NCBI GenBank assembly: GCA_963675595.2
Contig: CAXXLZ010000001.1
Location: 1,280,001 to 1,344,000, forward strand
Source of the DNA: Thermodesulfobacteriota bacterium
GTDB lineage: Bacteria > Desulfobacterota > Desulfarculia > JACQYL01
DNA: 64,000 nucleotides
Direction of reading: 5' to 3'
The notes beneath the pieces were generated by a model. The model worked only from the letters and a program-made list of their open reading frames with translations. It did not search any database and had not been told where the DNA came from. A program made the position numbers and the translations under genes. Position 1 is the stretch's first letter. Every line of letters starts with the position of its first letter. Positions 8,049 through 64,000 of this stretch are shown here, in pieces.

Positions 8049-8447
8049 TCACTCCGGTTTCTTTCCCCATATTTTTTCAGCACTCCGCCCCACCACATAT
8101 CCGCCCACGCCCACATTCAAAAGTGCCCAGAGGCCGTCAGGAAGTTCGAGCATTTTTACCTTATCGGTGAACGCCGATAGGTAAGGGAAAAAGATATAGT
8201 TGTTCACCACGATGGCCATGATGGACACCATGAGCATGGGGCGCCAGTTGCGCTGAAGCCAGGAACCCTGCGCCTCCAGGCGCACGATGGAAGCCCGGAT
8301 TTCCTGGTCCTGAAGCATGGCCGCCTGCATGCCGGCCTGGATTTCCGCTTTGGCTTTGGCCTTGTCCGCTTCACTCATGGACGGCGGGAACCAGTGATCC
8401 AGGACCTTACCCGCTACGTTCAGTGCCGTGTCGATAATGGGGATCAT
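8049..8447 (-). CDS. Holin, 3TM (GTA-holin-like) family
   Basis: SWLQRNWRP and GYVVGRSAEK motifs. Confidence 0.85.
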   Translation of the reverse strand: MIPIIDTALNVAGKVLDHWFPPSMSEADKAKAKAEIQAGMQAAMLQDQEIRASIVRLEAQGSWLQRNWRPMLMVSIMAIVVNNYIFFPYLSAFTDKVKMLELPDGLWALLNVGVGGYVVGRSAEKIWGKKPE

Positions 8448-11400
8448 GACGCCTTCTCCCGTTCTTCATCGTCCCGAGCAAACACCGCCTGCATGGCATC
8501 CCGGCCGTAAAGCCGCATGTACCACTCGAGCGCTTTGCGGTACACTTCCCGATCCTTCGCGGAAAGGGTCCCGAGAAAGCGCCGCCTCATGTTCTTGGAC
8601 ATACCTCCGAGCGGGTGTGCGAGCTTCACGCTGATTTTGAGCCCCTTGGCCGATCCTCCCAACTCGAAATACTTTTGAAGGTATCGTTTCGCCGCCTTCA
8701 CGTCTCCGTATCGCAGAGCCCGTTTGTATTGGTAAAGAGCGTTCCCCTTCTTTGTCGGCGTAATCGACGGCATTTCTCTTCCCTGGTCCTCCAGGAAGTC
8801 GAACATCTTTTTCTTGACGTCGTAGTAAGCCGTCTCCCCGGGGTCGGATGAGTACCCTCCGAAGGCGAATATGTCGCTGAACAGTTGGCCCAAAACGGTC
8901 TCCTCCTTCCTCATCGGCTTGGGAGGCAGGTCCGTAAACTCGGACAATCCGCGAGACGCCCATACGTAGGGGGTTCCGAGAGAGAACAGCCGGGCGATAT
9001 GCTCCGCCTTGTCTCGAATCGGCCGCGGAGCCGTCGGGTCCGGCCACAAGGCCTTGCCCGTGATCGTCTCATAGATCGCTTTCTCAATCGGCCTGGTGCC
9101 CTGGAACAATCGAAGAGGACCGGCTGCGAGTCCTTCTCCGGCCTTGGTTACAATCGTCTCACGGCCGCTCACGACGTCTTTAACGTCCTCCACGACGTCT
9201 TCCGCGCCGAACCACCCCAGCGCATCAGAGAGGGCTCCTTGGAACCGAATAGACATGATCGTTCCGTCTTCCCGGCGCCCGAGGATCAGGTGAAGTTGAC
9301 GCCGTTTGTCTTCTCCGATCTCGTCCCACTCGTCCGGGAAAAACGTCATGTTGAACAGGACTACGGCCGCGTACAACGCCGAAGCCTTGACTCCGAGCTT
9401 GGTAGCCTTCCATCCAAGCACCGCGCCTACGCCCGCCTTACTCTTCCCCTCGTATTGCAGGTTCCGAAGCAGCCGGACATACCTGGGGGCGTTGATCTCC
9501 ATCCACGAATAGAACGAAATCAGGTGCCGGCGGATCCACTTGCCCGCCTCCGAAATGTTGCCGTAATCTCCGATTAGTTCTCGAGAGAGCTTCGCCGCCA
9601 TCTCGGCATCCGTCGCGGAGTCCTTCATGGACAACAGCTCGTCCCGATTCGACGCCGCGATCATGTTTTCCCCGGGCTTCCGGCCCTTCTTGATCTGGTC
9701 CTGGAAATACCTGAACGCTGCAAGTCGCAGGATGTTTTCCCGGAACGTGGTGAAGTCCTTGGATGACTTCCAGAAGCGCTTGAACAGGTTCGGTCGTTCC
9801 CCGCGGAGGACCTCGAGGAAGTCGTTCTCCGCAAGCGACGACGCTACTTCGTTGAGCTCCTGGACGGACCATCCGGAGGACGTGACTCCGAGACGCATAG
9901 CTTCGTCCATTTGCTCCTGGAGCCCCTTTGGCAAAGCGGCACGGTTGCGGTACGCCTTCAGGTCCTTCGCCGCCTTCCAGGCATATTTGAAAATCTTCGG
10001 GTCATAGGCCATCACAATATCGGCGTCGCCCGACAGGTTGTTCAGGTTGTATCTGATCCACCGGAACGGGTTCACCAGGGTCCATATTTTCCAACCGCTT
10101 TGAACCTTGGCCGACGCCTTCGACAAGACGTGATCGTCTAACGGCGGATTCAAGTTGTCCAAGGTCTTGGCAAGGTCCACGGGAACGGCCCATGCCTGTC
10201 CCGGTACCCGGGCCCACACTTGCGGGATTTTGTCCGGCAGAGGTTCCCCGGCGCGGACCCGTTCGAGGACGGAATCGGTGATGCTGTTCACACGAAAGAA
10301 CACGCCGCCCGGTTTCGGTTGCCATGCGGTGAAGCCCGGAGGGAGGAAATCATCCCACTCGGACCTGTCGGACCCGAGGACGTCATTGATGACTACAAGT
10401 CGCTGGTTCCTGCCCTTGTAGAATCCAAAGGCCGCTCCTTTTGCCGCGTGGCCGGTTTGAACCAAATGGCTCAAAAGCTCAAACAGGTTCATCCCCGTTA
10501 CGTCGATTCGCAGCTCCGAGCCCGTGGCTTTGTTTTTTTGGGCTTGTTGGACGCGGGCATGTTCGGACGCGAGCTTGGCGACGATCTTGTTGAATTGGTT
10601 GGGTAGTCCGGCCAACTCTCCATCGGAGGCCATCTTTGCCAAACGGTGAAGCGCTCGGCCCATGCGAACGCCGCCGCCCTTCATGCGGGCGTCAAGCTCG
10701 GCGAACGCCTTCATATCTTTCTTTTCGAGATCGGCCCATTTCTCCGCGAACATGGCATCGTTGGCGGCCTTGGCCCGCGCTTCAAGAGCCGGACGAACAT
10801 CGGCAACCTGCTTCATCCGGTCCATGGCTTTCTTCGTTTCGACCTGGGCGAGCCCTTGGGCGATCACTTCGAATTCCGACTGGAAATAATCGGTGGAGTA
10901 GTCCTTTACGGACCCCTTTCGGGCGATCTGCCACCCTTTGCGGTGCATCCGCAAGTCCCGGGATCCGGTTCCCGGGGCGAGGTTGTACGACTCCCCGAGC
11001 GCTCTGGCCGCACGATACTCGAGAACCTGGTGGTGGAAATACCGATCATCATCGAGGACGGACTTATCAAGAAGGTCCTCCTCGACCAGGGAGCGCTTAA
11101 GCGCCCGCATAAAGTCGTGCCGCACCTTGATCGCCGTAGACACGCCCTCGTTTTCCAATGCTTGCCGACGGATGTGCGTCGCGTAGTCCCGCGCCGTTTG
11201 TTCGTCGAAGCCGAAAGGTAGCTTGCCGTCTTGGTCGGGCTTCAAGAGTCCGGAGTCCATGTCGCGGATCATGTCGTCCATGACCAAGTGAAGTTCGAAG
11301 AGACGTTTCTCTTGCATCGTTTTCATCGGTCGAACGATGTCGGCGAGTTGTTCCTGGGCTTTACGCCGGCTGTTCTCCGACGTCTCTTGGAACAATCGAA

Positions 11401-14400
11401 GGATATTCAGCTCGGCCCCGAAGGTGTCCGGGTCCAGATGCTCGTGAGCCCTGGTGAACTGGTTTTTGGTCCAGGCCACGGAGGCGCGGAGTTTTTGCGC
11501 CAATGAGGCAATGGGTATTCCTTTCGAAGACACATCCAAGCGTTTCTTCACGTCTTCCGGGAGTCCGGCGTAGAGTCCGGAAAGGTCTGGCGACTTGGAC
11601 CGAAGGGAAAACATGGGCTGGCCTGCTTCGAGAACCGAATCCCGCATTTTGTCGTTAATCGGCACGAAGTGGACGGCTTGTATGTCCTGTTCGCCCGTGT
11701 CAATTTTGGTGGTTCCGACCTTGACACCCCATTTTTTGACGTACTTGTTCACTAGAGACGTAAGTATTTTGTCGTAGAAGGCGACCATCCCTTGGCTTGC
11801 ATGCTCTACTGTATCGTTCAAGGCGTAGAATACATATCCGTCGTCATTGTCTGGACGACTTAAAAGGTCGTTCGCTGCGTTTTGGCCTATGTAGTCTGCC
11901 AAGTCGGCCTGCGAAACCTTTCTTTGGGTGAACAAATAATTGTCGTCCTGGTCAAAAGCCGTTAATTCATTGTGGGCTCTATCGTATGAAACAGATGTAA
12001 TATAATCGGTTAGCTTATATCTGTTGGATTGCTGCTTTCCCGTTGTCCAGGCCACGCCGTCCATGTTTTGCTCTGCGGCCTTTCTAAGCATAAACTTAAA
12101 CCCTAACAACGGCCAAGACTGCTTCCATGGTGCGTCTGCAACCGAACCCCTCTTCGTTGGATCGTAACCCTTTTTCCTTCCTTTTTGGTGCCAATCACTT
12201 TGTATTTCTTCAATAAATAAAAGACGACCGTCGCCGGAAGAGCTGTCTCGAACACTTGTTCTGGTATGTAAAATAGGGTTCTTGTCTCCACTGAAATGGT
12301 TGCTATAGAAAAGCTCTTCGTCAATATCAAACGAAAAAACATGCTCATTATACAACGATAATGGTCCGCCTAAAACATACTGACCGTATTGCGTATACAT
12401 GTGATTCTGTGCTTTGTATGCAAATACATCGTTTGATAATTCATCGACAAAAAAATCAGGATACAAAGACAAAACCACTTCATCATACAGCACTCTAACG
12501 TCGATATTTTCAACATCGTAAAAAATGTGGTGGCTACCGTTGTTTGCTAATAGTTCGCTAAAGATTTTGTCCTGATGCTCCATTAAATACGCAACGGCGT
12601 TTTTCGCCGAGACACGCACTTCTTCAGGTGTAAAGAAATAAGGATCTTTCGTAGACTCCGCTTCTGAGTTCGCCACGTCAATGTCTAAAAGAAGCGTCGT
12701 TAGAGCGTCATCACTTTCCGATGTCAACGTCTTAAAGAAGCCGGTTATGGCGTTATAGACAGATGTAGCCTTGGCGTGTAGGCCGTCACTGTCGGAAAAA
12801 GGCCTTTCGCCCTTCCATATATCAAGAATGTTGGGCGTTGCAGCCCTAACAAAACCAATTACATCGTCTTTGGTTACCTGTCGCTCGTTGCGAGCTTCAA
12901 GCCACTCTACCATACCCGACCAATCAAGCTCTTCCTGCTTGAACTCGCCCTTCCGAGCAAAGCCCTGCACCATTTCAGCGAACCCTTTTCCGGTTCCCTT
13001 GTGCGGCAATTTCTTTTCCAAAACCCGCTGCATATGAGAATACAGCACCGGCCCCTTGGCCGAGAAAGACATGCCGGCTCCGCCCCGCCCGACCGCCTGC
13101 CTTGCCTTCGAGATCAAGTCCCGAATTTCCGCGTCGGACAACTTGAGTCCGGGGAACAACCGCCGCAACGCCTTGCGAACCGCCGCGATCAATCGATCCA
13201 GAAAGGACGCCTTGAACTCCGGATCCCGCGCGAGCTTGGCGACGGCTTCTTCGATGGCCTGCAACTTCTGTTCTCGGTCCTTCAGGTCCAGCCCGTAGTT
13301 GTCCGCGATTCCTCGGGCGGATCGCGCTACCCGACTATTCAGCCACGCCGCGTTCAGGATCGGCGTTAGGTCTTCTCCAAGTACGGCGCGAAGTCCGAAG
13401 TGACCCACCATCTCTTCAAGGTAGACACGCTGCGCCCGCTCAGGCGAGGATAGATTGTCGGCTACGAGGTAGACTTTGCCGTCATGGTAGACGCCTTCGA
13501 CTCGCCCTTCGTAACCTCGTGCTTGAATGATTTTGCGAACGGCTTCGGGTAGATCGGACTCGGATTGCACTATTGCAACGTCGGCCGGCAGTTGCGCGTT
13601 GTCGGTCGCGGAGCGCACCGCTTCCGTCACGGCTTCGACCGAGTTTTTCTTTTCGGCGGGTTTTTCCGAAAGGGAAAACTTCCCCGCATCTTTGGCGGGT
13701 TTTTCTTTGGAGGCTTCAGTGTCGGTGGTCTTCTCGCTCGACTCCCGGTCGGACTGTTTCTTGTCCCCGGACCCATCTTTCTTTTTCCGAGCCGCCGACT
13801 TCTTTTTCCCGGATTCGGATTTCTTTTTCCCTACTTCGTCTTTTTGCTTCCCGGCACGATCACCTGCCCGTACCGTTCGTTCATCCTTCTTTTCAGACGT
13901 TTGTGTCTCTGCGCCGCGATCTCGTCCCCTTCCGGAACCAGGCTCCCCTCCCTCACCATCTGTTCCAGCTCCTTGGCGAGCGCCTGGAGTTCTTCCTGCG
14001 ACAGCTTCCGGGATTCGTTCGGCGACGGCTTCGTAGAATTCTCGTTTGATTCCATCCGCTTCCCTCGGACTTCCCGCCTTGGACAATCGCAAGGCGTACT
14101 CGTTCAACAACTCGCTGATCGGCCCACCCTGAAAACCGGCCAGCTTGTCAAAGGCGTCCTTCATGAACGCCGCGCGTTCGGCCGCCGACCGATTGTCCGC
14201 TACCTTGATTGTGTTGCCGACCTCGGACAGTCGTTCCGCCTTGCCCGCATTTGCTACGGCGGAAAATAGGCGCTTGTCGTCGACAAACCTGCCCACAGCA
14301 TACTCTCGCAGCGCCGCGCGGTCCATCAATACCGGGCGAGTCCCGAAAAAATCTTCTTCGCCGAACAGGGACGCCTGGGTCCCCCTCGTCGTGGGAATCC

Positions 14401-17400
14401 CCTTGACCTCGTTGATCAACTCCCTCAAAAAAGCCGGCGATATTTTGCGCCCCTTGGAACGCTCCTTGTCCACCGCCTTCATGACTTCGAGTTGCGCCCG
14501 CTGGTCCTCGAGTCCTTCCCCCAAGACGACGCCGAGTCCCTGGTCGAGTTCTCCGCTCTCCACCTGTCCGAAAATACTCGGGTGTAGCTGGGACAGAGCC
14601 GCGCCCTTGCGGGCCAAGTCGCCCTTCAAGGAAACCTTGAATTTTTCCATCAACTCCTTCGGGGTGATGCCCTTTTCACGCATGAAATGCGCTACGTCTT
14701 CCGGTCGGCCGTTGCCTTCGGCTATGTTGATCGCCGCGCCCTTCAGCTTGGCGTCCTGCCACGTCTCCGCCTGCAGGAAACGCACGTCCACGTCGGGAAC
14801 GCCTGCACGCTTCGCCAGGTCATAGCGATGATGGCCGTTGACGACGTAGGCTTTCCCGTCTTCCGGATCGAACCAAACCGACAACACACCGCCCAACTCC
14901 GGATCATACTCCTGCACGTCGCTGAGTTTGGATCCGGCTCCGGTTCTGGAATTCACGTCGCGCTTGAACTGGAACCGGTCGGGATCCACATTCAGGTCCT
15001 CGGTCTTCATCCGCACAATGCGGGAATCCGTGGGGATGGTGTCCCGATCAATCGTTCCGTCTTCGCGGACCACGATCGAAGAAGGGGCGGTCGCCCGTTC
15101 TATCTCCTCGTCCTGCTCGGCACGTTCCCTGCGCCGTTGCTCCCAAGGCGGAACCTGCTTGACCTTTCCCGTCGCCTCATCCGCCGTCGCCGCCTCTTCC
15201 GGCTCGGTATCCGGAGGCGGGGGCGTAATCGTGGGCGGCTTCTTGGCTCCTTGCTCGCCGGTCTCCGCTTCACCCGCCGGGCCCGTGATGACGGCCTCGA
15301 CTCCGAGCACTTCTCCCGTGTCCCCGTCCACCACTTCTTCGAACGTGACGGCCTGGTCAGGGTCCTTGATGGCCTTCCGTACTTCCTTATGGAGCGCTGC
15401 GGACTTCTCGTTCCGGAACGGACGATCGTTTTTCGTACGCACCCGGCGCGTAACGATTTCCGGCTCCTTCGGCGGCTCTTCGCTTGACTCTTCCGCGCCC
15501 GGAGGAGGGGGTGCCACGGTGGCGGGTTCGGAAGGCTTCTTCTGGCCTTCGTCGGAGTTCCGCGCCGAATCCTCAGGCTTCAGAGGACTTCCTCCCCCTC
15601 CCAAGAGATGGTTCGCGTAGTCGTAACCCGTCTTGCCAAGGTCCGACCCGTTAACCAAATAAACGGTTTTGGTGCCCGCATCCTTGATACGTTGTTCGTA
15701 CTCGTGTTGTGCCTTATATGAATCCAGGCGGTTGAACGTGGCGCGATTCCATTTCAACTTAGGCTCCTCAAGGGAGCTTGTTTCCAACCTTCCCTCTTCG
15801 AACAACGAATCAATCCGATCTCGGATGCTCGACACCTCACCGGTGTCTTGAAACCTAAGTTCCTTCTCAAGCGCTTTTTTAGCCCTGCCCTTCTCCATGG
15901 GCGACTTGGAGCGGACGAAACCGTTCCACCGATCCTCCCGCGATGCCGCCGCCTCGTCGGTCGAAGGAGGCACTTCACCTTCCACGCCCTCCGCCACCTC
16001 ATCCGAAGGCGGAATATTAATGTCGGCGACTTCATCCGGCGCAAAGTCCTCTTCGTACTCCCCTCCGCCTTCGTCGGAACGAATGGTGACCGTCTCGCCT
16101 TCGCCCTTGGGTTCTGTCGGCTCTTGAGTGTCCGGTGCTTGCCCTACCCCTTCCTCGGTCGCATTCGTCGATCCTGGGGCAACCTCCGGCTCCGTTTTTT
16201 CGGGCCTGCCTTCGGCTTTTTTGGAATTCGCCGCGATGTAGTCCTCTGCGGACTTCAAGTTCTCCCGCCATGCTTTCGGAACCGGTCTTCCCCCTTCCTC
16301 CTGAGAGGAGATCAATTCCCGAAGCTGACGGGCGATACTTTCGGCCTGGTCTACTGTATCGAACTGCGACCAAGGCTCTACTTTTTGCCCTTCTTCCCCT
16401 GTCCCTTGCCCTTGCTCTTCTCCCGGGGTTCCGGTGCCTGCTGCGACTGCTTCTTCGGTTTTTGAGGCCTCTTCTTGGACATTGAATCCTCCTTCGGCGT
16501 CGATCTCTCGGGCTCTACGTCTGGCGTATTCCGCAACCGGCGAGTCATCTTTGTAAAGTGCGTCCACCGCCCCAACAGACCCGAGTTCCCGAATCTTCTT
16601 CTCGATGAATTGAACCTGCCCCTCGTCCAACCCTTGGGAAGCGCTTTCCTGTTTTCTGGAAGGCGTTTCCGGGGTCTTTGGAAGGTTGTTTTCGGGTGCC
16701 CGTACGGTACTTTCAACCGGTTGGGAAGGCGCTTCCGTCGCAACGGGAAGATCGGGGAACCCGAGATAATACTGGTCCGGCCCCACCTGATCCAGCGTAA
16801 CGTTAACGCCCCCCTCGAAAGCGTCTTTCAACATCCAGCCCATGCGGTGCGCCTGGCGCAACGTCAACGGCTCTCCACCCGGCATTCCAAACCCGCCCCG
16901 GCTACTGCGTTCCAAACCGAAGGCATCGTCCAGGGTCTGCTCGGAAAGCTGCTCAGGCTTGAATTGTCCCTGCTCCGGACTCCACGGCTTCCACCCGGGT
17001 TCCTCAGGAGTTGTCTCTGGGGCAATAGGCGTATGATCCGCCACCATGGGCGGTCCCTGCCGCCGAGCATCCGACGAAGCCAACGGACCCGTAGGCCGCG
17101 CCGCTTCCGCGGGAGTCTCGGTCGTCTCAGGCCCCAATAGGTTGATCTCCTCGCCGCTCGCCAACCGGTCCGGCATGACCCGCTGCTTCGGATTCGCAAC
17201 AGGCGTGAATTCGTCCTGTTCTCCAAAAGCGATGGTGCCGTCCGGTTCCACGGCCCCGGTGGGTGCGTTCTCCTCGTCGAACACCGCCCGCTTCCTGGGA
17301 GAATCTACGGTAAGGTAATCCCGTTGCGTTTGAGGCTGAGTGATTGTTGCGCCGGTTTCGGGGTCAATGGCAGACTGCTGCCGCGACGCCGCCTGCTCCG

Positions 17401-19096
17401 CCTTGACCTTGTCATACGCGGCGATCTCCTCCGCCGTAGCTTCGTCCGCCTGCGTCAAATTCAGGATGGACGAGTCGCCCTTTTTTATGGTTTGAGCTAG
17501 CGTTCCAACGGCTCCGAAAAACGGGACGGCTGCCGCTACCTGCAAAAACGTATCGGCCATCAATTTGCCCAACGGAGTACTGCCCATGTTGGCCGACCTC
17601 TTCATGGCCTCCTGGACAAGTGACGTCAACTCTTCGGTTGGCACCTCCGCGACGGCCGACTTGAACATATTGCCGCCCAAGCGCCGTAACAGCCTCGTCA
17701 TCCACTGTGTAACCGGTTCACCAATAGCCTTACGAAGAGGCTCCGCCGCTCCTTTCCCGAGAATACCCCAAAGCCGACCCGTAACCATTTCGCCTAGCGC
17801 TTCAAACGTACCCTCTGCCGCCCCGGACACAAGCGCTTGCGTGTTCACCGTCCGCTTGGCGATGTCCCGAGCGGTCTTCATGTCGGGTGCTTCGCCGGCC
17901 TTTACCAGACCCTCGGCGTATCGATCCAAAAATTGGTCATATTCAGACAACGAAAAAATCAAACCCGCACTTAACGCATGCCCTAAAAAGCCTCCGACCG
18001 GGCCACCAATCAGCGAGCCCGCGAGCGCTCCGGGGGCGCCAACCATGAGGGACGTCGCCGCCGTACCGGCACCCTGTCCAAGGAATTGCATGATAGTCTG
18101 CGGATCTGGTAGCTGTGGATGATCTTTTTTGAACTGTTCAATCTCTTCGTCGGTCTTGATTCCGAGCGCACGCGCCGCGTGCAGGGCAACGTTGTAGGCT
18201 TCCCAATTTCCTTGGTTCAAATAATCGAAGAACGAAAGATTGTTGAGTTGTTTCCCCTTGGCTTCGGATTGCTGCGCGGCCATTTCCGCTTCCCGGTCCT
18301 TGGCCGCTGCGCTCTGCTCGATGTTTTCCGCCGGAGGTTGCGCCGTAACGGCCGTTCCACGTCCGCCCTGAGCCAACGGGCCGGTAAGATAAGACGTGCT
18401 TGACTCTACAGGCGCGTATAAGCCGGAATCATCTTGGGCTTGCATGGTAGGTGGAGAAGCCGAAGCCGTGCTCGTGCTCGAAGATAGGGGGCCGGTAGGG
18501 GGCCGGTCGCCTGCAAGGGTGTCATAGAAGCCCTTAACCTTGTCTGCATGGGTCAAAGACTTCGGTCCGACATACCGGCGGGCGAGACGTTCCTGTTCCT
18601 CGGACGGCTGCTCATACGCCAACGTGTTCAAATAAGCCGGAGCCGCCGAAGGACCGGCATGATAGGCAAGTGCGACGTTGCGCGGGTCTTCCCCGACCTT
18701 CGGGACAATGTATTGCTTCACGTACCGCGCCGCCGCGTCGGCCGCTTTGGCGAAGTCAAAGGCGTCTTCTTCCGTAATGCCAAGCTCCTTCTGAGTGCCG
18801 GGCATGATCTGAAATGCGCCGGCGGCTCTGCCTTGTCCGGGCACCTCGGGGCCGACCGTTTTCGGGTTGCCGGACGTTTCGGCGTACATCATGGCCTCGA
18901 GTAACAACGGATCCACGCCGTACCGCGCCCCGGCTTCCTGAAGAATGGCCCGCTTCTGCTCGATGCCCGGCACGTCCGGAATCGCGCCGCCGGGTTGCCC
19001 GCTTTGCGCCGAACTCGGGTCCGGAGACGCATTCGACGGCGCTTCCTCCTGCCCGTCAAACCAATCCAACACGCCCGACAAGAAAGACTTGCTCAC
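8444..19096 (-). CDS. Giant (~3550 aa) polyvalent internal virion protein: lytic transglycosylase, ParB-like, zincin-like and LPD-type modules
   Basis: SLT motifs AETSGNP, GAFQIMPGT and AYHAGP; ParB-like VNGHHRY; GVYHDG...EEMVGHFGL; EEIQSDWHQ domain; GTG start overlapping the upstream stop. Confidence 0.85.
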   Translation of the reverse strand: MSKSFLSGVLDWFDGQEEAPSNASPDPSSAQSGQPGGAIPDVPGIEQKRAILQEAGARYGVDPLLLEAMMYAETSGNPKTVGPEVPGQGRAAGAFQIMPGTQKELGITEEDAFDFAKAADAAARYVKQYIVPKVGEDPRNVALAYHAGPSAAPAYLNTLAYEQPSEEQERLARRYVGPKSLTHADKVKGFYDTLAGDRPPTGPLSSSTSTASASPPTMQAQDDSGLYAPVESSTSYLTGPLAQGGRGTAVTAQPPAENIEQSAAAKDREAEMAAQQSEAKGKQLNNLSFFDYLNQGNWEAYNVALHAARALGIKTDEEIEQFKKDHPQLPDPQTIMQFLGQGAGTAATSLMVGAPGALAGSLIGGPVGGFLGHALSAGLIFSLSEYDQFLDRYAEGLVKAGEAPDMKTARDIAKRTVNTQALVSGAAEGTFEALGEMVTGRLWGILGKGAAEPLRKAIGEPVTQWMTRLLRRLGGNMFKSAVAEVPTEELTSLVQEAMKRSANMGSTPLGKLMADTFLQVAAAVPFFGAVGTLAQTIKKGDSSILNLTQADEATAEEIAAYDKVKAEQAASRQQSAIDPETGATITQPQTQRDYLTVDSPRKRAVFDEENAPTGAVEPDGTIAFGEQDEFTPVANPKQRVMPDRLASGEEINLLGPETTETPAEAARPTGPLASSDARRQGPPMVADHTPIAPETTPEEPGWKPWSPEQGQFKPEQLSEQTLDDAFGLERSSRGGFGMPGGEPLTLRQAHRMGWMLKDAFEGGVNVTLDQVGPDQYYLGFPDLPVATEAPSQPVESTVRAPENNLPKTPETPSRKQESASQGLDEGQVQFIEKKIRELGSVGAVDALYKDDSPVAEYARRRAREIDAEGGFNVQEEASKTEEAVAAGTGTPGEEQGQGTGEEGQKVEPWSQFDTVDQAESIARQLRELISSQEEGGRPVPKAWRENLKSAEDYIAANSKKAEGRPEKTEPEVAPGSTNATEEGVGQAPDTQEPTEPKGEGETVTIRSDEGGGEYEEDFAPDEVADINIPPSDEVAEGVEGEVPPSTDEAAASREDRWNGFVRSKSPMEKGRAKKALEKELRFQDTGEVSSIRDRIDSLFEEGRLETSSLEEPKLKWNRATFNRLDSYKAQHEYEQRIKDAGTKTVYLVNGSDLGKTGYDYANHLLGGGGSPLKPEDSARNSDEGQKKPSEPATVAPPPPGAEESSEEPPKEPEIVTRRVRTKNDRPFRNEKSAALHKEVRKAIKDPDQAVTFEEVVDGDTGEVLGVEAVITGPAGEAETGEQGAKKPPTITPPPPDTEPEEAATADEATGKVKQVPPWEQRRRERAEQDEEIERATAPSSIVVREDGTIDRDTIPTDSRIVRMKTEDLNVDPDRFQFKRDVNSRTGAGSKLSDVQEYDPELGGVLSVWFDPEDGKAYVVNGHHRYDLAKRAGVPDVDVRFLQAETWQDAKLKGAAINIAEGNGRPEDVAHFMREKGITPKELMEKFKVSLKGDLARKGAALSQLHPSIFGQVESGELDQGLGVVLGEGLEDQRAQLEVMKAVDKERSKGRKISPAFLRELINEVKGIPTTRGTQASLFGEEDFFGTRPVLMDRAALREYAVGRFVDDKRLFSAVANAGKAERLSEVGNTIKVADNRSAAERAAFMKDAFDKLAGFQGGPISELLNEYALRLSKAGSPREADGIKREFYEAVAERIPEAVAGRTPGARQGAGTDGEGGEPGSGRGRDRGAETQTSEKKDERTVRAGDRAGKQKDEVGKKKSESGKKKSAARKKKDGSGDKKQSDRESSEKTTDTEASKEKPAKDAGKFSLSEKPAEKKNSVEAVTEAVRSATDNAQLPADVAIVQSESDLPEAVRKIIQARGYEGRVEGVYHDGKVYLVADNLSSPERAQRVYLEEMVGHFGLRAVLGEDLTPILNAAWLNSRVARSARGIADNYGLDLKDREQKLQAIEEAVAKLARDPEFKASFLDRLIAAVRKALRRLFPGLKLSDAEIRDLISKARQAVGRGGAGMSFSAKGPVLYSHMQRVLEKKLPHKGTGKGFAEMVQGFARKGEFKQEELDWSGMVEWLEARNERQVTKDDVIGFVRAATPNILDIWKGERPFSDSDGLHAKATSVYNAITGFFKTLTSESDDALTTLLLDIDVANSEAESTKDPYFFTPEEVRVSAKNAVAYLMEHQDKIFSELLANNGSHHIFYDVENIDVRVLYDEVVLSLYPDFFVDELSNDVFAYKAQNHMYTQYGQYVLGGPLSLYNEHVFSFDIDEELFYSNHFSGDKNPILHTRTSVRDSSSGDGRLLFIEEIQSDWHQKGRKKGYDPTKRGSVADAPWKQSWPLLGFKFMLRKAAEQNMDGVAWTTGKQQSNRYKLTDYITSVSYDRAHNELTAFDQDDNYLFTQRKVSQADLADYIGQNAANDLLSRPDNDDGYVFYALNDTVEHASQGMVAFYDKILTSLVNKYVKKWGVKVGTTKIDTGEQDIQAVHFVPINDKMRDSVLEAGQPMFSLRSKSPDLSGLYAGLPEDVKKRLDVSSKGIPIASLAQKLRASVAWTKNQFTRAHEHLDPDTFGAELNILRLFQETSENSRRKAQEQLADIVRPMKTMQEKRLFELHLVMDDMIRDMDSGLLKPDQDGKLPFGFDEQTARDYATHIRRQALENEGVSTAIKVRHDFMRALKRSLVEEDLLDKSVLDDDRYFHHQVLEYRAARALGESYNLAPGTGSRDLRMHRKGWQIARKGSVKDYSTDYFQSEFEVIAQGLAQVETKKAMDRMKQVADVRPALEARAKAANDAMFAEKWADLEKKDMKAFAELDARMKGGGVRMGRALHRLAKMASDGELAGLPNQFNKIVAKLASEHARVQQAQKNKATGSELRIDVTGMNLFELLSHLVQTGHAAKGAAFGFYKGRNQRLVVINDVLGSDRSEWDDFLPPGFTAWQPKPGGVFFRVNSITDSVLERVRAGEPLPDKIPQVWARVPGQAWAVPVDLAKTLDNLNPPLDDHVLSKASAKVQSGWKIWTLVNPFRWIRYNLNNLSGDADIVMAYDPKIFKYAWKAAKDLKAYRNRAALPKGLQEQMDEAMRLGVTSSGWSVQELNEVASSLAENDFLEVLRGERPNLFKRFWKSSKDFTTFRENILRLAAFRYFQDQIKKGRKPGENMIAASNRDELLSMKDSATDAEMAAKLSRELIGDYGNISEAGKWIRRHLISFYSWMEINAPRYVRLLRNLQYEGKSKAGVGAVLGWKATKLGVKASALYAAVVLFNMTFFPDEWDEIGEDKRRQLHLILGRREDGTIMSIRFQGALSDALGWFGAEDVVEDVKDVVSGRETIVTKAGEGLAAGPLRLFQGTRPIEKAIYETITGKALWPDPTAPRPIRDKAEHIARLFSLGTPYVWASRGLSEFTDLPPKPMRKEETVLGQLFSDIFAFGGYSSDPGETAYYDVKKKMFDFLEDQGREMPSITPTKKGNALYQYKRALRYGDVKAAKRYLQKYFELGGSAKGLKISVKLAHPLGGMSKNMRRRFLGTLSAKDREVYRKALEWYMRLYGRDAMQAVFARDDEEREKAS

Positions 19097-20421
19097 TGAA
19101 CCGCCCCTCTCGTTCCCCCGGGAACCAACACGCCGCCGGACGCCTGATTTCGAGGCCATCCGTCCTGTCGCTGAACGTTGCCGCTCATGCGACGCGCCGC
19201 TTCTCGATAGGCCTCCGCAATCATTTCCGAAAGCATCGCGGCGTTACCCGTTCGCCGGTTGTAGCCTTCCGGGTCCTGCTGAAAAGCCAGAATATCCTCT
19301 TTCGTCAGGCCCTGCTCCTTTGCCATCTGTGCAAAAATTTTCGTGGCAAGCGATTCAAGGGCCGGAAGCTCTTCAGGCGAAAACGTGCCGGGGACCCTCA
19401 CGGACATGTTGTCATCCACCTTGACATCCGTGTAGCCCTTGGCTTTGTCGGGATAATTCGGGTTTTGCGCCCGGCCCGCGGGCCGACTATACCGGTCTTG
19501 AGACAACCATCCGAAGGCTTTCGGGAACGCGCCGGTGGGCTGTTCGTCTCCGGCGCCGCCCATGGCATAGTCGTATATGCGAGACAGGACACCCGGCGGT
19601 TCGGACTCGGCCTTGGTTTCCATTTGCGTCGGCGCGGCCTCATCCGGAGGAGGAGACGCCCTGTTCAGAAAATCGGCGAAAAATGGATCGGTCCGAGCCA
19701 ATGACCCAAGATTGAGTTGCAGCGCTTCCCGAAATCTCTGAGGATCAACGACGCCGTACATGTCTTCGGACATCTCTTGGGCAAACTTCATCGCTTCCGA
19801 TATGGTTTTCTGCTTGTCCTTCAACGACATTTCCGGTTCGCGCCCGGCCATCCGCATAACCTGGGGCCTGGACAGCTCCTTTAAAACCGTTCGCTTGTCG
19901 GGAGCGATCAACCTGAACATGTCCGCCTGGTCGTCGTATACAATCTCGGAGTCCTTCGGAAGTCCGAACACTTCTTTTGCGGGCTCATACAGGCTGTCCA
20001 ACACAAGCCCGGCGCCATACTTCGTTCTCTTCTCATCCAGCTCAAACTTTTTCAGAGCCGTATCGGCCTTCTGCCGCTCCTCTTCATGCTTGAGGCCTGC
20101 GAGCATGATGCGTCGCTTCTCCGGGGCGTCTATGAGCTCCTGCATTTTTATCATCATGTTCATTCGATTGAACATGGCCTGCTGTTCCGCCGCGCGTCTC
20201 TGCTGTTGAGACTGCTCCGCCTCCAACCCGAATCGCTTCTGTTGCAGGCCGAACTCATCCGTCTGGAGCTTCTTCTGCCAGTCGAGCTGTTCTCTTTGGA
20301 GCTGCTCCTGCCGGTCGAGCCTGTCCTGCTGATCGTTGTAACGATTCTGCTCCTGCCATGAACGACCGATCCCCGCCGCCAAGGGGCCGATATACCGAAG
20401 TGCCGCGCCGAAATTCGCCAT
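19093..20421 (-). CDS. Putative internal virion (ejection) protein
   Basis: Gln-rich coiled coil; position among ejection genes. Confidence 0.6.
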   Translation of the reverse strand: MANFGAALRYIGPLAAGIGRSWQEQNRYNDQQDRLDRQEQLQREQLDWQKKLQTDEFGLQQKRFGLEAEQSQQQRRAAEQQAMFNRMNMMIKMQELIDAPEKRRIMLAGLKHEEERQKADTALKKFELDEKRTKYGAGLVLDSLYEPAKEVFGLPKDSEIVYDDQADMFRLIAPDKRTVLKELSRPQVMRMAGREPEMSLKDKQKTISEAMKFAQEMSEDMYGVVDPQRFREALQLNLGSLARTDPFFADFLNRASPPPDEAAPTQMETKAESEPPGVLSRIYDYAMGGAGDEQPTGAFPKAFGWLSQDRYSRPAGRAQNPNYPDKAKGYTDVKVDDNMSVRVPGTFSPEELPALESLATKIFAQMAKEQGLTKEDILAFQQDPEGYNRRTGNAAMLSEMIAEAYREAARRMSGNVQRQDGWPRNQASGGVLVPGGTRGAVQ

Positions 20422-56802: not shown

Positions 56803-58083
56803 ATGAACAACAAAATCGTCCGCCTTCGGGCGGAAAACATCAAAAGGCTGTCTGCCGTGGAGATTACACCCGAGGGCAACGTCGTCGTAATCGGCGGGCA
56901 AAACGCTCAGGGTAAATCGTCCGTACTGGACAGCATCATGTACGCCTTAGCCGGCGCACGCTCCATTCCATCTCGCCCGGTTCGGGACGGGGCCGACAAA
57001 GGGATTATATCGCTCGACCTGGGGGACATTACGGTAACGCGATCTTTTACGGCGGCCGGCAACTCGTACATCCAAGTAGAGAACGCCGACGGGTACACCG
57101 CAAAGTCACCACAACAATTACTCGACAAACTGACCGGTGCGCTGTGCTTTGATCCCCTGGAGTTTTCACGCAAGGACAAAAAAGCCCAACTCGCCGTCTT
57201 GAAAGAACTTCTCGGGCTGGACTTTACCGAAGAGGACAAGAAGCGGAAAGAGCTTTATGACGCGCGAACCCTCACCAACAAGCAAATCGCCCAACTCAAG
57301 ACGAAGCTCGCCGATCACGCCGAAGACCCCGGAGCCCCCACGGAACGAGTCTCCGTTAAATCGCTTCTGGAAGATTTGGAAGCGGCTCGAGGGATCAACC
57401 GAGACAACGAAGGGAAACGGGCGCTACTGAACGCGCTACAGATTCGGATCAAAGAAAAAGAGCAAGGCGTCTTGAACCTACAGTGGCAGATAGAGGCCCT
57501 TCAGCGTGATCTCGAGCAACTCTATCGACAGCGCCACGAGCAGGACGTCATCATCAACGGACTGACCTGGGCCGACGAAAAGGGCATCCAACATAACATC
57601 GCCCAAGCGGAGGAAATCAATAACCGCGTCGATGCACAGCGGCAGCGCGGCCTGATCCTCGACGACCTGAAGGAGCTGGAAGCATCCGCCGTCGTCCTGA
57701 CTGAAAAGATCACGAAAATCGACAGAGACAAGGCGGAAGCGGTCGCGTCAAAGCCGTTTCCCATGGAAGGGTTGTCGTTCAACGAGGAAGGCGTTTTGTA
57801 CCAGGGTATACCTCTCGACCAGGCGTCCAGCGCCGAGCAGTTGCGGGTGTCGGTCGCCATGGGCTTTGCGTTGCATCCGCAACTGAAAGTCCTGTTGATC
57901 CGGGACGGTTCCCTTCTCGACAACGACAACCTCGCGTTGATCGCCGACATGGCCGCGAAGGAGGACGGGCAAATCTGGATCGAGCGTGTGGGCGAAGGGC
58001 AAGAGTGCCAGGTTATCATCGAAGACGGACACGTGAAAGGCAAAGTTTCCGCGGAAGAACCAGAGCCGGCGGAGGCCGCGTAA
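56803..58083 (+). CDS. SMC/Rad50-like ATPase
   Basis: AENIKR; GQNAQGKSS; coiled coil; ASSAEQ signature; LIRDGSLLD. Confidence 0.85.
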   Translation: MNNKIVRLRAENIKRLSAVEITPEGNVVVIGGQNAQGKSSVLDSIMYALAGARSIPSRPVRDGADKGIISLDLGDITVTRSFTAAGNSYIQVENADGYTAKSPQQLLDKLTGALCFDPLEFSRKDKKAQLAVLKELLGLDFTEEDKKRKELYDARTLTNKQIAQLKTKLADHAEDPGAPTERVSVKSLLEDLEAARGINRDNEGKRALLNALQIRIKEKEQGVLNLQWQIEALQRDLEQLYRQRHEQDVIINGLTWADEKGIQHNIAQAEEINNRVDAQRQRGLILDDLKELEASAVVLTEKITKIDRDKAEAVASKPFPMEGLSFNEEGVLYQGIPLDQASSAEQLRVSVAMGFALHPQLKVLLIRDGSLLDNDNLALIADMAAKEDGQIWIERVGEGQECQVIIEDGHVKGKVSAEEPEPAEAA

Positions 58084-59429: not shown

Positions 59430-61565
59430 ATGACTGAAACCTGCCAAGGAGTCCTACAGGACGTCCGAATCTACAACGCCGCTTCCGGTTGGGGATTCGC
59501 TCGGCTCGTCGGCCAAGAATACAAGGTGGTTGGATGCTTCCCGGCCCTTGAGCCCGGCGACTACTGCGAATTCACCGGGGAATGGACCGAGCATCCGAAG
59601 TACGGGAAACAGTTCAAGGCGTCGTCGGTGTCCATCTCGGTCCCAAAGGATTCCATGGGCTTGCGGAAGTACCTGCAGCAGCGCTTGCCGTGGATCGGTC
59701 CCGTCGCGGCCGGAAGATTGGTCGATGATTACGGGGACCGACTCTTCGACGTCATCCAAAACAACCCCATGGAGTTGATATCCGTAAAGGGTATTACCGA
59801 AGAAAGGGCGTTGAAGATCCACGAGGCATTCCTGTCCGGCCAAAAAGACAAGGACCTGGATATCTTTTTTGCTACCCATAATTTGACCACGGGAATGGTT
59901 GCCCGGCTGGTGGAACGATACGGGGACAAGTCCAAAGCCGCGTCTACCATCAAGGCCGATCCGTATTTGCTGGCTGATGATGTTTATGGCGTCGGCTTCA
60001 AAAAGGCTGACGCCATAGCGTTGTCGGTCGGCATTCCGAAACGCTCCCCGCGGAGAATCAAGGCGGGGATACTATGGTTGCTGAAGGACGCATCCGAGAG
60101 AGCGGGCCATTGTTTTTTGCCCGCATCCGAGATGGGAAGCCTTGGATACAAGCTCCTGGAAGTCTCTCGTGGCGACCTGGGGGACCCCGTTCGTGAGTTG
60201 GCGGACGAGGACGGCGTTATTGTCGAAGGGGACAGGATTGCCCTGTCGGAACTGTATCATGCCGAGGAGGAGATTGCTTCGGCGTTGTTGCGTTTGGCGT
60301 CGGCGCCACATCACGCGGTGATGCGCTCCCTGTCTCAGGACACCTTGGATTCCCTGGATGACGATCAACGACGGGCTCTTACTCTGGCTCTCGAAAGCAA
60401 GGTAAGCGTCATCACGGGAGGACCCGGAACCGGCAAGACGTACACCATTCAAAGAATTCTGGAAGCCCTAGGAGATCGAAAGATTGCTTTGGCCGCGCCC
60501 ACGGGCAAAGCGGCGAAGAGGATGGAGGAGATGACGTCCAGGCCGGCGCAGACCATTCACCGGTTGTTGGAGTTTGTTCCCGCTCCGGCACCCGGGTTTC
60601 GTCGAAACCGGCAGAACCCATTGGATTTCGATTGCGTCATTATCGACGAGACATCCATGGTGGATGTCTCGTTGATGAAGGCATTTTTACGGGCCGTGGA
60701 TCCCGATATGACGCAGTTGATTTTTGTCGGAGACGTGGATCAGCTCCCGAGCGTAGGCCCCGGCATGGCGCTTCGGGACATGATCGACTCTGAGAAGATA
60801 CCCACGGCTCGGCTGACGACATTACACAGACAGTCTGAAAAGTCGTTTATTGCATTGAATGCCCGTGCGGTGAATCGAGGGGAAAAGCTCATTTTGAACG
60901 TAGAAAATAGCGACTTTCACTTCATTCAAGTTGAAGACAAAGACAAGATTCCCGAGAAGATTACTCAAATCGTCAACAGCGTTCCGTCTCAACCCTTCGG
61001 GGTCCCCCTATGGGACATACAGGTTTTATGCCCACAGAGGGTAGGCCCCATCGGCGTAAACGCGCTGAATCCTTTGTTGCGCCCCTTATTCAATCCGGAA
61101 GGCATGGAGCTATCCGGGTTTGGCGGGCTGTATACGGGAGACAGGGTGATTCAGACACGCAACAATTACGACCTTGGAATATTCAACGGCGAAATCGGGG
61201 AGGTTTTACTGCGACAGCCCGAACCGGAAGGAGGACCGGAAGAACTAGACTATGTCGCCGTGCAGTTTCCGCAAGGGATTGTGCCCTATTCGAAGTTGAC
61301 CTGCTCTGAGTTGCAGCCCGCTTATGCGCTGACAATTCACAAGTCTCAGGGATCGGAGTTCCCCTGCGTCATTGTTCCCTTGCACACGACAAATTTCATC
61401 ATGCTCAAGCGGCCGTTGCTGTATACGGCGATTACGCGGGCGAAACAATTGTTGGTTTTGGTTGGGAGCGAGAAAGCCATGAAGGTGGCGATTAAGACGT
61501 TGGACACGTCAAATAGGTATACGCGACTGAAAGAGATGTTATGCCAGGAGGCGGTTAATCGGTAA
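59430..61565 (+). CDS. recD2: RecD2-like SF1B DNA helicase
   Basis: HPKYGKQF; GGPGTGKT; AAPTGKAA; IIDETSM; GDVDQLPSVG; TIHKSQGSEF; LLYTAITRAK. Confidence 0.93.
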   Translation: MTETCQGVLQDVRIYNAASGWGFARLVGQEYKVVGCFPALEPGDYCEFTGEWTEHPKYGKQFKASSVSISVPKDSMGLRKYLQQRLPWIGPVAAGRLVDDYGDRLFDVIQNNPMELISVKGITEERALKIHEAFLSGQKDKDLDIFFATHNLTTGMVARLVERYGDKSKAASTIKADPYLLADDVYGVGFKKADAIALSVGIPKRSPRRIKAGILWLLKDASERAGHCFLPASEMGSLGYKLLEVSRGDLGDPVRELADEDGVIVEGDRIALSELYHAEEEIASALLRLASAPHHAVMRSLSQDTLDSLDDDQRRALTLALESKVSVITGGPGTGKTYTIQRILEALGDRKIALAAPTGKAAKRMEEMTSRPAQTIHRLLEFVPAPAPGFRRNRQNPLDFDCVIIDETSMVDVSLMKAFLRAVDPDMTQLIFVGDVDQLPSVGPGMALRDMIDSEKIPTARLTTLHRQSEKSFIALNARAVNRGEKLILNVENSDFHFIQVEDKDKIPEKITQIVNSVPSQPFGVPLWDIQVLCPQRVGPIGVNALNPLLRPLFNPEGMELSGFGGLYTGDRVIQTRNNYDLGIFNGEIGEVLLRQPEPEGGPEELDYVAVQFPQGIVPYSKLTCSELQPAYALTIHKSQGSEFPCVIVPLHTTNFIMLKRPLLYTAITRAKQLLVLVGSEKAMKVAIKTLDTSNRYTRLKEMLCQEAVNR

Positions 61566-61626
61566 CCGCGCCTGCAAACCCGATTACCGATTAACACAAT
61601 ACACGTAACACAACACACGTAACACA
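61554..61626 (+). promoter_or_regulatory. 12-bp inverted repeat plus direct repeats upstream of the RAMP gene
   Basis: GTTAATCGGTAA (61554) / TTACCGATTAAC (61584); ACACGTAACACA at 61601 and 61615. Confidence 0.55.
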
Positions 61627-61643
61627 CACGATCGAAAGGATAC

Positions 61644-62411
61644 ATGAAAATGGGTGAAGCTGCAAAGAAGATTCAAGAAGAGCAAATGAAAGAGACGACG
61701 ACTGCGCCGGCCGAGACGGAAGAAACGGAAGGCAAACGAGGAAGAAAGCCGAAGGCCAAGTCGGAGGCGGGGCCGAAACAGGAAGGCCCGATGTTTCTTC
61801 CCATCGCCGAGCGGACATTCAGGATTACCATGACGGAAACCATGCTTGGGACCATCCCGGCCAACCAGCAGATTTTTTCCGACTACGTCAATTCCAAGGC
61901 CATGACTCCGGAGGAGAGGGAGGAAGAGGCGCTGCTTCAGTCCGGGGAAATCGACGAGGAAACCGGGCTTCCGGCGAACGATCATCATACCGGATTTTTC
62001 CGCGACTCCGCGGGCATCTATCTGATGAACTACCACATCAAGGGCTTCTTGAAGGAGGCCGGGAACATCCTAAAGGAAGCCGCCAAAGTAAAGGCGTTGC
62101 GCTCGAAGATAGATAACAACGTCTTTGTGTTTCCCCGCAAAATCTACCTTGCCAAAACCCACAGCGGCGTCCTGGAACGCCCCCTGCGAGCCCAAACGGC
62201 GCAGGGGCCCCGAGTCGCCCTGGCTCAATCCCTGACCGTGGACGCCGGGATTGCCTTCAATATTACGATTCGACTCCTGGACCACAAAGAGCTGAGTTGG
62301 TCGTTGATCGAATTGCTCCTGGACTACGGGGAGCTGAAAGGTCTTGGGCAGTGGAGAAACGGCGGGTATGGGACGTTTTCCTGGGAAGACATCACCCCCA
62401 AAAAGAAGTAA
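61644..62411 (+). CDS. Stand-alone Cas7/Csm3-like RAMP protein
   Basis: First strand FRITMTETMLG; IKGFLKEA helix (Csm3 SLKG..R equivalent); C-terminal G-rich loop GLGQWRNGGYGTF; AAAGGA RBS. Confidence 0.78.
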   Translation: MKMGEAAKKIQEEQMKETTTAPAETEETEGKRGRKPKAKSEAGPKQEGPMFLPIAERTFRITMTETMLGTIPANQQIFSDYVNSKAMTPEEREEEALLQSGEIDEETGLPANDHHTGFFRDSAGIYLMNYHIKGFLKEAGNILKEAAKVKALRSKIDNNVFVFPRKIYLAKTHSGVLERPLRAQTAQGPRVALAQSLTVDAGIAFNITIRLLDHKELSWSLIELLLDYGELKGLGQWRNGGYGTFSWEDITPKKK

Positions 62412-64000
62412 CGGCAAGGTCGCCCCATTTGCCGCGCCGCCTCGGTTAAGCCAAGCTTCGTACTGCAAGAGCATCGCCCTGTTCCTCGAGGCGAGGTATC
62501 GGCGTGGCAAAGCAATGCAGTGAAATGAGGGCTCAGGCTATGCCTGGTAGTGGGTGGCACGTAAAGGCGGAGCATAGCATGGCATGGTTCTGTAACGGCG
62601 AAGCACGGCGTGGCGCCGCAACGCTCAGGCAAAGTTAGGTGTGGTGTTGCGCCGAGGGCGTTGGCCGGGCGCAGTAGGGCACCGTGAAACTCTGGAAGCA
62701 TAGGTAATCCTGAGTGTCGTTGGAGCAAGGAGGCGCGGAGGCGAAGCCCCGTTGGAGATGGCGGTGCATCGGAACGGCTAAGCCGAGCGATGAAGGGACG
62801 AGACATGCAAGGGCGGAGTGAAGCAGACCGGAGTAACGCCGCGGCATAGCGTGGGTTCAGCAGGGCAACGCTTCGGCACGGCGAAGCAGCGTGATGAAGA
62901 TGAACAAGAAGAGTGTTGCAAGGGAGCAGTAAAGTGTGGAGGAGCAGTGCATCGGCGAGGCGGAGTTGTGCGGGGTTCGTGCACGGAGAGGTAATCCGCT
63001 GAGATGATACGCACGGGCGTGGTCGCGCGCGGAAAAGCAGCGCTTGGGCGGTTCACAGTGTGGAGGCGTTTTGCTTTGGCATAGTCGCTTGAAGAGCCGT
63101 GGTGTATGGCTTTGGCAGGGCGAGGTAAGGCGGGGCAGAGCTTTGGCTTGGAGATGTGCTGCTTTCCTTTGTAACGGCAATTCATGGCGTATATGGGCAC
63201 GTTGAAGCTGCGGTACTGCATTTTACAGCAAGGAGCGTCATGCGCATCAGAGAATGCAAAGGAAAAGCAACGTAATGCAAAGGAAAAGCAACGTTCCGTT
63301 CCTTCCGGCGCAGGCGGGGTACAGCGTCGCGCTTTTTGGCTTAGGCAAAGTGAAGTTCCGCGTGACCCACCAAAGGCAAAGCTCTGTTGAGCTATGTTTC
63401 GGCGATGTTTCGTCCTACAAGGCGCAGGAACGCACAGGCAGGGCGTAGATAGGCATCGGCTTAGCGGGGTACTTACTGCGTCGGCAAGGTTGTGAGAGGC
63501 CGAGTTCGGCGTCGGCAAGGTGCGGCGTTATAACGCTGCGTAGCGCTTTGGCGTAGCGAAGTTTAGCCGAGGCGAAGTTAGGTAAGGCGACGATGCGAAT
63601 TGGCTTGGTACAGCGCTGCACGGACCTGTAATGGTTGTGCCAAGTTCTGAGCAGCCCGGAGATAAACGCAAAGGCACCGCGGCGTCTTCCTGTGCACTAA
63701 GGAGTAAAGGCGTAGCGGGGTACGGATGTGCAACGGCGGAGTAGGAACAAGGCGATGAAGCGTTGTGCGAAGGCACTGCATGGCAAGGTCATGTATACCA
63801 CGGGCGAGGTGTCGTTGGTCAAAGTTCAGCGGCGGCTTAGCTAAGCATAGTGCAGCCGGGGCTATGTAAAGCCGGCTCCGCCAAGGCGTTGCAAAGCTCA
63901 GTTGTGGCAAAGTGCGGTTCAGCGGCGGCAACGCATAGCACGACAAAGTAGCGCGACGGTAGTGCTTAGTTCGGCAAAACAGCGCGACGGCAGTGTCCAA
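62412..64000 (+). ncRNA. Putative guide-RNA array of degenerate NGYNN pentamers in 5n+1-nt units; runs off the window
   Basis: e.g. 62566 GGCGG AGCAT AGCAT GGCAT GGTTC TGTAA C / GGCGA AGCAC GGCGT GGCGC CGCAA CGCTC A / GGCAA AGTTA GGTGT GGTGT TGCGC; no credible ORF. Confidence 0.7.

Follow-up and report, generated by a model that had tools for sequence, protein, structure and literature searches.

The 64,000-nucleotide (nt) stretch analyzed here (positions 1280001-1344000 of contig C1, hereafter the window) very probably carries a prophage-borne VIPR system near its 3' end, consisting of a Vipr-family RAMP gene and a 1.6-kb vrRNA array that starts 29 nt after the stop codon on the same (+) strand. 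VIPR systems, which were first described only months ago and may, as has been proposed, predate CRISPR, silence DNA under the guidance of programmable RNAs and are known to us from four preprints (10.64898/2026.04.26.720920, 10.64898/2026.04.26.720927, 10.64898/2026.10.15.759431, 10.64898/2026.10.21.760802). There, a lone Vipr RAMP, mostly found in viruses and proviruses, is described together with vrRNAs that consist of GGY/NN pentamers, each repeat being bound by one protomer; base pairing with DNA involves the variable dinucleotides and skips every third target base, and rival elements are silenced (10.64898/2026.04.26.720920). Because VIPR, YNNNG repeats and “staggered” arrays already appear in the text of this preprint, the window locus is a further example, of the GY-NNN branch, and not a new kind of system. 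Bench work has so far been limited to the GGY/NN (type II) VIPR, and the locus provides a clean and well-preserved example of the far larger GY-NNN branch, with an unusually long punctuated array. Located in an assembled genome (6.8 Mb in three contigs, 56% G+C, 98% complete) and within an intact prophage, and with ~50 guides, it represents a practical starting point for experiments. Its elements are as follows:

61644-62411, + strand: vipr gene, coding for a Cas7-like RAMP protein of 255 amino acids (open reading frame (ORF), AlphaFold2, Foldseek, hhalign).
62412-62440, + strand: 29-nt spacer from the stop codon to the first pentamer (hidden Markov model (HMM) parse).
62441 to ~64025, + strand: candidate vrRNA array of GYNNN pentamers, reaching ~25 nt past the window (HMM parse, autocorrelation).
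62502-62596, + strand: longest run without an extra base, 19 pentamers (HMM parse).
63253-63294, + strand: perfect 21-nt tandem duplication, or ~four pentamers (TRF).

The array is real. A preliminary description of this DNA, made from its letters, had reported a G and a pyrimidine recurring every 5 nt over at least 1.59 kb, and had predicted a 5-nt autocorrelation peak from position 62412 onward. Base identity does peak at lags 5, 10, 15/16, 21 and 26 in this region (62412-64000, 36% G), and the autocorrelation of G reaches maxima at lags 26-31, 57-62 and 93. The recurrent pair thus stands but the strict step does not, as the mean period is 5.2 nt rather than 5 and the tract is punctuated. 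Parsing with a five-phase HMM yielded 292 clean GYNNN pentamers in 58 blocks (~50 blocks when cut at the extra bases), including 230 with a canonical G-Y pair. Within the pentamer, a fraction of 0.89 have G at position 1 and 0.87 a C or T at position 2, C is scarce at position 3 (0.08), and base usage is nearly even at positions 4 and 5, which corresponds to tandem 5-nt repeats flanking the gene with a fixed G and pyrimidine and hypervariable positions in between (YNNNG register). The base preceding the pentamer G is itself G in a fraction of only 0.27, so that the first position is indeed, as first described, more relaxed than in GGY.

The punctuation consists of single inserted bases, usually G, each of which follows a run of 4-7 pentamers, six being the commonest run length (31 nt). 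Accordingly, 42 of the 58 phase slips correspond to one extra G at the G position, giving a local GGY, and successive extra Gs are separated by 31 nt in 16 of 41 intervals, by 36 nt in five, and by 26 and 21 nt in three each, all of the form 5n+1 (20 of the 58 blocks contain six pentamers). The perfect identity of the two 21-nt copies at 63253-63294 points to a recent local duplication or turnover, and no other tandem repeat was detected in the array by TRF; neither a repeated “tail” element, a hammerhead nor an Rfam RNA was found there. Contigs from three sequencing runs include fragments identical to the stretch and one indel variant: those of another run of the same study have an extra T at 63267, within the 21-nt unit that is duplicated. 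Of the runs listed as RNA, none contains the stretch. In the spacer at 62412-62440, neither a promoter nor a terminator was predicted on the + strand, and the lack of a terminator-like site there suggests that the array is co-transcribed with vipr.

When every part of the genome is ranked by a local lag-5 G statistic, the array comes first of 33,950 windows (0.348), and the next independent region, a pentapeptide-repeat gene, reaches 0.19. Coherent Fourier power over 1590 nt is higher than in shuffled sequences (13.9 at a period of 5.12, vs. a maximum of 9.8 in 200 shuffles) but modest, because phase slips break the long-range coherence. Two repeat-protein genes elsewhere in the genome exceed the array in this measure, hence whole-array Fourier power was dropped and the local lag-5 statistic kept as the test. 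These two genes, encoding pentapeptide (C2:34401-36000) and TPR (C2:4362401-4365000) repeats, have 5-nt-harmonic Fourier signals equal to or above that of the array, which calls for caution in periodicity screens. Finally, the preliminary description had listed a real protein encoded in the tract among the findings that would speak against it; no 3-nt periodicity was detected in the array, and antisense ORFs within it matched no Pfam family (their length is due to the C-rich antisense strand). In a codon-composition test of the variable dinucleotides, no model beat the uniform one.

The protein is predicted to adopt a Cas7-like fold and, judging from profile alignment, is related to the Vipr of phage SUSP1. 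The RAMP hallmarks first noticed in its sequence are all present in an AlphaFold2 model built from a 78-sequence alignment (mean pLDDT 87.6, pTM 0.76), with a strand at residues 54-63, a helix at 129-147 carrying the IKGFLKEA motif, and a glycine-rich loop (G-loop) at 233-243 that precedes the final strand. Residues 1-50 are modeled with low confidence, rich in K and E, and missing from most homologues; an alternative start at M50 (61791) is preceded by a good Shine-Dalgarno sequence and would give a product of ~206 amino acids, the usual length of the homologues. Although Pfam, PHROG and PADLOC hold no family for this protein, a Foldseek comparison of the kind initially suggested retrieved type VII Cas7 and type III Csm3 as the best PDB matches (E-values 4.6e-8 to 1e-6, 164 matches at E ≤ 0.001), the best structural match in BFVD is annotated as a “Cas system-associated RAMP superfamily protein,” and the family profile matched type VII Cas7 (E 3.7e-5) and Csm4. 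Aligned with hhalign to the SUSP1 Vipr, this profile matched end to end over 174 columns (E 2e-5) with the two G-loops in register. Together with YNNNG being simply another register of the NGYNN repeat first described, this alignment bears out the link to VIPR that had originally been suggested. Overall, the window locus thus combines a minimal RAMP related to the published Vipr (RNA recognition motif (RRM) core, glycine-rich loop and thumb) with its own pentamer array, which supports the initial proposal of a non-CRISPR, RNA-guided system.

To examine individual residues, we located the SUSP1 vipr gene in KT454805.2, where H17, E71, M72, R138, D177, W178 and R179 are present as named in the available part of 10.64898/2026.04.26.720927. 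W178 and R179, which read the second G and the pyrimidine, align with W237 and R238 of the window protein and are therefore kept, whereas at the two positions that read the first G, T70 stands in place of H17 and Q236 in place of D177. We infer that this replacement is the reason why only G-Y is fixed in the GY-NNN branch. The locus would then offer a plausible structural reason for the relaxed repeat, alongside a testable hint, considered below, of gap-free target reading.

The pairing of gene and array is conserved across the family. A word-indexed search found 701 matching proteins at E ≤ 0.001, and an exhaustive search extended the family to 1526 representative clusters (E ≤ 1e-10 for 1046). 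These relatives include at least 573 in IMG/VR contigs, four in uncultured “Bacteriophage sp.” GenBank records and twelve in GTDB species genomes, all of them metagenome-assembled; for 10 homologues, the cluster records gave GenBank accessions, RJR32461.1 and RLC49275.1 among them, and no UniProt identifiers. Loci are referred to below by the labels of this analysis (L-numbers, L001 being the window's own locus). Among the first 36 loci collected, 31 displayed a same-strand G periodicity of 5.1-5.3 nt, which adjoined the gene in 30. After removal of L013 (a 28-residue match) and of the duplicates L018 and L021, an HMM tract was present in all 33 remaining loci and was at least 175 nt long in 31 of them, with extra Gs most often spaced by 26 nt (111 cases) or 31 nt (105), then 21 nt (47) or 36 nt (44). 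The preliminary description had asked whether homologues in other phages carry similar downstream arrays, and in the final set of 172 loci (171 homologue loci and L001, after 11 duplicates or unrelated records were dropped and with some near-duplicates remaining) a punctuated array of at least 100 nt adjoins the gene in 167, the exceptions being L011, L013, L097, L139 and L182. With 1583 nt, the array of the window is the second longest among these 172 loci. In sequence logos (112 blocks of 31 nt, 107 of 26 nt), conservation is highest in the first and the last pentamer (G-C, then A) and looser in the inner ones.

The closest published counterparts appear to be the staggered or YNNNG systems. 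In its available parts, 10.64898/2026.04.26.720920 mentions seven VIPR types and “staggered arrays with overlapping vrRNAs,” and names NNNGG, YNNNG and NNNNG as other repeat classes in its methods. As in the window, these virus- or provirus-borne systems associate a lone Vipr RAMP with a flanking array of 5-nt step in which a G and a pyrimidine are fixed and three positions vary, and no long spacer or tail separates one guide from the next; this comparison draws on text and legends only, which confirm neither the type number nor an identical architecture. The legend of fig. S18 refers to vrRNAs taken from positions with a 1-nt overlap, possibly but not necessarily the equivalent of the extra-G punctuation. 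The text of this preprint, as available, gives no targeting rule for the YNNNG class.

Similarities to the type II system of SUSP1 (KT454805.2; PDB 36pp) include the colinear alignment, the predicted common fold, the conserved W-R pair of the G-loop and, by extension to the window system, one protomer per 5-nt repeat. Moreover, a footprint of about six units (18 bp) at the window locus would fit both the six-subunit helical period of SUSP1 and the 18-bp footprint of its vrRNA4 reported in the accessible part of 10.64898/2026.04.26.720927. However, each of the four SUSP1 vrRNAs is ~100 nt long and combines 9-16 GGYNN repeats with a structured 3' tail, and SUSP1 also has vap1, whereas the window has ~50 tail-less GYNNN blocks in one 1.6-kb tract and no recognizable vap. 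Since GGY is not fixed, no repeated tail is present and Rfam gives no match, the window locus is not type II. More distantly, class 1 Cas7 proteins (type VII Cas7, Csm3) provided the best Foldseek matches, share the RRM core, thumb and G-loop, and likewise polymerize along a guide with a fixed step. The window system differs in an RNA step of 5 rather than 6 nt, in being phage-borne, and in lacking a CRISPR array or other cas genes. Type IV-D is comparable in that a Cas7-like gene adjoins a RecD-family helicase and that interference is expected to be non-nucleolytic, but Csf1, Cas5 and Cas6 are missing here, and the helicase, which resembles an ordinary phage RecD2, is missing from the other family loci examined.

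By analogy with these systems, and with SUSP1 in particular, the array would be transcribed into vrRNA, along which Vipr protomers would polymerize, one per pentamer, each holding the fixed G and pyrimidine. The variable bases would in this way be presented to the double-stranded DNA of competing mobile elements, and binding to a target would silence its transcription rather than cut it. Each block is probably one guide with a footprint of ~18 bp.

To identify targets, all blocks of all arrays were decoded under ~10 different rules and searched against the collected loci with the arrays masked, and only the contiguous-triplet (NNN) rule gave block-length matches. In one case, a 7-pentamer block of L017 (L017:6938-6972) matches positions 1728-1748 of L016 at 21 of 21 bases. 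This site comprises the Shine-Dalgarno sequence and ATG of a gene for a 63-residue AlpA-family regulator (PF05930, E 3.7e-12), 395 nt upstream of the vipr of that phage. Both loci have 84-94% identical flanks, and L017 retains no more of the AlpA gene than a 63-nt remnant, from which the target site is missing. In the other case, a block common to L094 (10785-10819), L115 and L118 matches L101 at 7832-7852 (20/21 bases), within codons 11-17 of an ORF of 205 amino acids. Both matches span exactly one block, from first to last pentamer, and are not extended by the neighboring blocks. No perfect 21-mer was obtained in 300 shuffles, no two matches at one mismatch or less in 40, and no 21-mer match at all at one mismatch or less in 10 shuffles against the 2.55-Mb set. 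With a regulator gene of the rival phage hit at its start in one case and another gene hit at its 5' end in the second, these two guide-target pairs fit the picture of phage-phage warfare given in the available parts of the VIPR preprints.

Two accounts of how the variable bases are read can be compared. The only targeting rule demonstrated by experiment, and only in type II, is the NN-plus-skip rule (10.64898/2026.04.26.720920 and 10.64898/2026.10.15.759431, in their available parts), and the window locus could be a VIPR reading DNA in this published manner, its third variable base being a relaxed, sequestered equivalent of the first G of GGY and remaining unpaired. The sole mismatch of the 20/21 match does fall on a third variable base. 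Yet the third bases match at 13 of 14 positions in the two pairs, vs. 0-5 of 7 in chance matches: when 888 unique 7-pentamer windows were searched with their first two variable bases, 45 matches at 14/14 were obtained, and the third bases matched at 0-4 positions in 43 of these, at 6 and 7 in the two pairs, and at no more than 5 in 169 matches of shuffled guides. In addition, NN-plus-skip searches with six-pentamer windows gave no excess over controls (368 with a match, vs. 353-391 in five controls), and both SUSP1 residues reading the first G are replaced in the window's family. Taken together, we consider the NN-plus-skip reading rather unlikely for this branch. About evenly poised is the proposal that each pentamer contributes all of its three variable bases to pairing with a contiguous target triplet. 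The preliminary description had suggested that the target is read non-contiguously; the two pairs suggest that the guide would be gapped but the target would not. This lead may be new relative to published VIPR. If triplet reading and punctuation both hold, the resulting code would be denser (18 of 18 bases read per six units, vs. 12 of 18) and would provide a natural route to many guides from one transcript. It is tempting to speculate further on a complete code for the GY-NNN branch, in which the protomer sequesters G-Y only, the three following bases are read gap-free, single extra bases divide one long transcript into ~50 guides of roughly one helical turn each, and T70/Q236 are the structural switch. 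This combined proposal is tentative, and we judge it possible rather than probable; if true, the guide library in the window would rank among the largest natural ones of its kind.

Several observations weigh against these interpretations. The triplet rule relies on two independent pairs, found after ~10 rules had been tried, and guides of 18 nt showed no excess (no perfect and two one-mismatch matches, vs. shuffle means of 0.1 and 3.6). The colinear rule also gave two one-mismatch matches, which we took, unchecked, for unmasked array remnants, and none of the further guides of L017, L016, L094 or L101 matches the whole contig of its rival. For the window itself, the proposed search of concatenated variable positions against the host found no target: real guides performed no better than shuffles under eight single-block rules (29 blocks), under four rules with five junction offsets (32 adjacent block pairs) or in a blastn-short search of 36 decoded guides. 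This agrees with the absence of self-targeting among the VIPR systems reported in the available part of 10.64898/2026.04.26.720920, but says little. Three decoded 21-letter window guides, two searched in IMG/VR and one in metagenome contigs, had no exact match, a weak test limited to exact matches. On the protein side, the link to SUSP1 Vipr is weak at the sequence level (hhalign probability 77%; PDB chain 36pp_D, “SUSP1 Vipr protein,” is matched by the family profile at E 0.097), and the structure of this protein is not among the Foldseek matches listed (PDB entries released to 8 April 2026). Lastly, the G-Y pair is missing from 62 of the 292 pentamers, and the G position is filled by G in a fraction of 0.89, vs. 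0.96 in the family, hence part of the array may be decayed.

If such decay were general, the array would be a relic or inactive cargo, derived from a functional ancestor and without working guides in this prophage. The many short or irregular blocks and the lack of any target for window guides, in their own genome or for the three searched in public collections, go in this direction. We nonetheless regard a relic as unlikely: the vipr ORF is intact and keeps all five invariant and 16 nearly invariant family residues listed, the array is among the longest of its family, the 21-nt duplication points to recent turnover, and working vrRNAs are themselves frequently degenerate internally (10.64898/2026.04.26.720920, available part). 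Far less probable still is that the tract acts as DNA, as a protein-binding or structural element next to a RAMP gene by coincidence. In its favor one may only remark that 5.2 nt is half of ~10.4 bp, i.e., half a helical turn. Such an element would leave unexplained why, in 167 of 172 loci and across very different phages, G lies on the gene's strand and the tract adjoins the gene, with a partner predicted to have an RNA-binding RAMP fold, and the SUSP1 repeats are RNA that co-purifies with Vipr, as reported in the accessible text of 10.64898/2026.04.26.720920. We therefore retain a VIPR locus as the best explanation.

The locus sits in an integrated prophage, as expected for a system carried by viruses, proviruses or mobile elements, and a vipr homologue is absent from all 40 related genomes searched. 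From PHROG assignments of 41 ORFs, prophage genes span from ~36.7 kb to an integrase at 66477-67676, which probably marks the prophage end. Downstream of the terminase region come an anti-repressor, an endolysin, a primase, an SbcC-like ATPase and a RecD2-type helicase, then vipr, and 3' of vipr the order is array, methyltransferase and integrase. On its 3' side, the array is followed by a ribosome-binding site and a small ORF, then by the cytosine methyltransferase gene. The main neighboring features are:

36.7-43 kb: portal-like protein (best PHROG: head-tail adaptor) and terminase subunits (PHROG).
56803-58083, + strand: SbcC/LmuB-like ATPase (PHROG 1499, E 4e-99).
59430-61565, + strand: RecD2-type superfamily 1 helicase, 79 nt upstream of vipr (Pfam, PHROG, PADLOC).
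64169-65317 (L001:3169-4317), after the array and past the window end: DNA cytosine methyltransferase.

The SbcC/LmuB-like ATPase gene is the first in a block of + strand genes whose last elements are vipr and the array. As first described, the window contains no cas genes and no CRISPR array: no Cas family was detected among the 43 ORFs scanned with PADLOC, a subset of those in the window, nor in the 41 with PHROG assignments, and over the whole window TRF returned three small repeats only and Rfam no match. Hence none of the components of a class 1 CRISPR-Cas system (repeat-spacer array, Cas5, Cas6, large-subunit or adaptation genes) was found in these searches. An ORF of 3571 amino acids on the - strand (8444-19159) has no PADLOC family either.

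Given its position, the upstream helicase could be an effector, loaded after RNA-guided binding and stripping or unwinding the target, as in type IV-D or helicase-bearing VIPR. It lies on the same strand as vipr, its best PADLOC model is typeIV_RecD (E 2.6e-71), and VIPR types III-V bear vap genes that include nucleases or helicases (10.64898/2026.04.26.720920, available part). An accessory vap beside vipr is typical of VIPR and specific to each type, and the same preprint gives six vap families for seven types, so that one type may lack a vap. Against such a role, the protein has the complete architecture of an ordinary RecD2/YrrC (Pfam domains AAA_19, AAA_30, HHH_RecD2, OB_YrrC and SH3_13), matches PHROG 4412 (“exonuclease V,” E 5.6e-149) within a replication module that includes the primase and the SbcC-like ATPase, and has no RecD homologue at any of 188 other loci (0 of 35 in a separate neighbor scan). 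Because of this architecture and the missing homologues, it is more likely a gene of the phage replication module, its accessory role being doubtful, and we consider an effector function improbable. Broadly, none of 11 window neighbors is conserved at the other loci, two distant methyltransferase matches aside, and the commonest neighbor there, a small XRE-type helix-turn-helix protein (76 loci), is absent here. Within the 79-nt gap between helicase and vipr, a 14-nt unit is present in 2.5 tandem copies (61592-61626), ending 18 nt 5' of the ATG, and could be an operator or another regulatory site.

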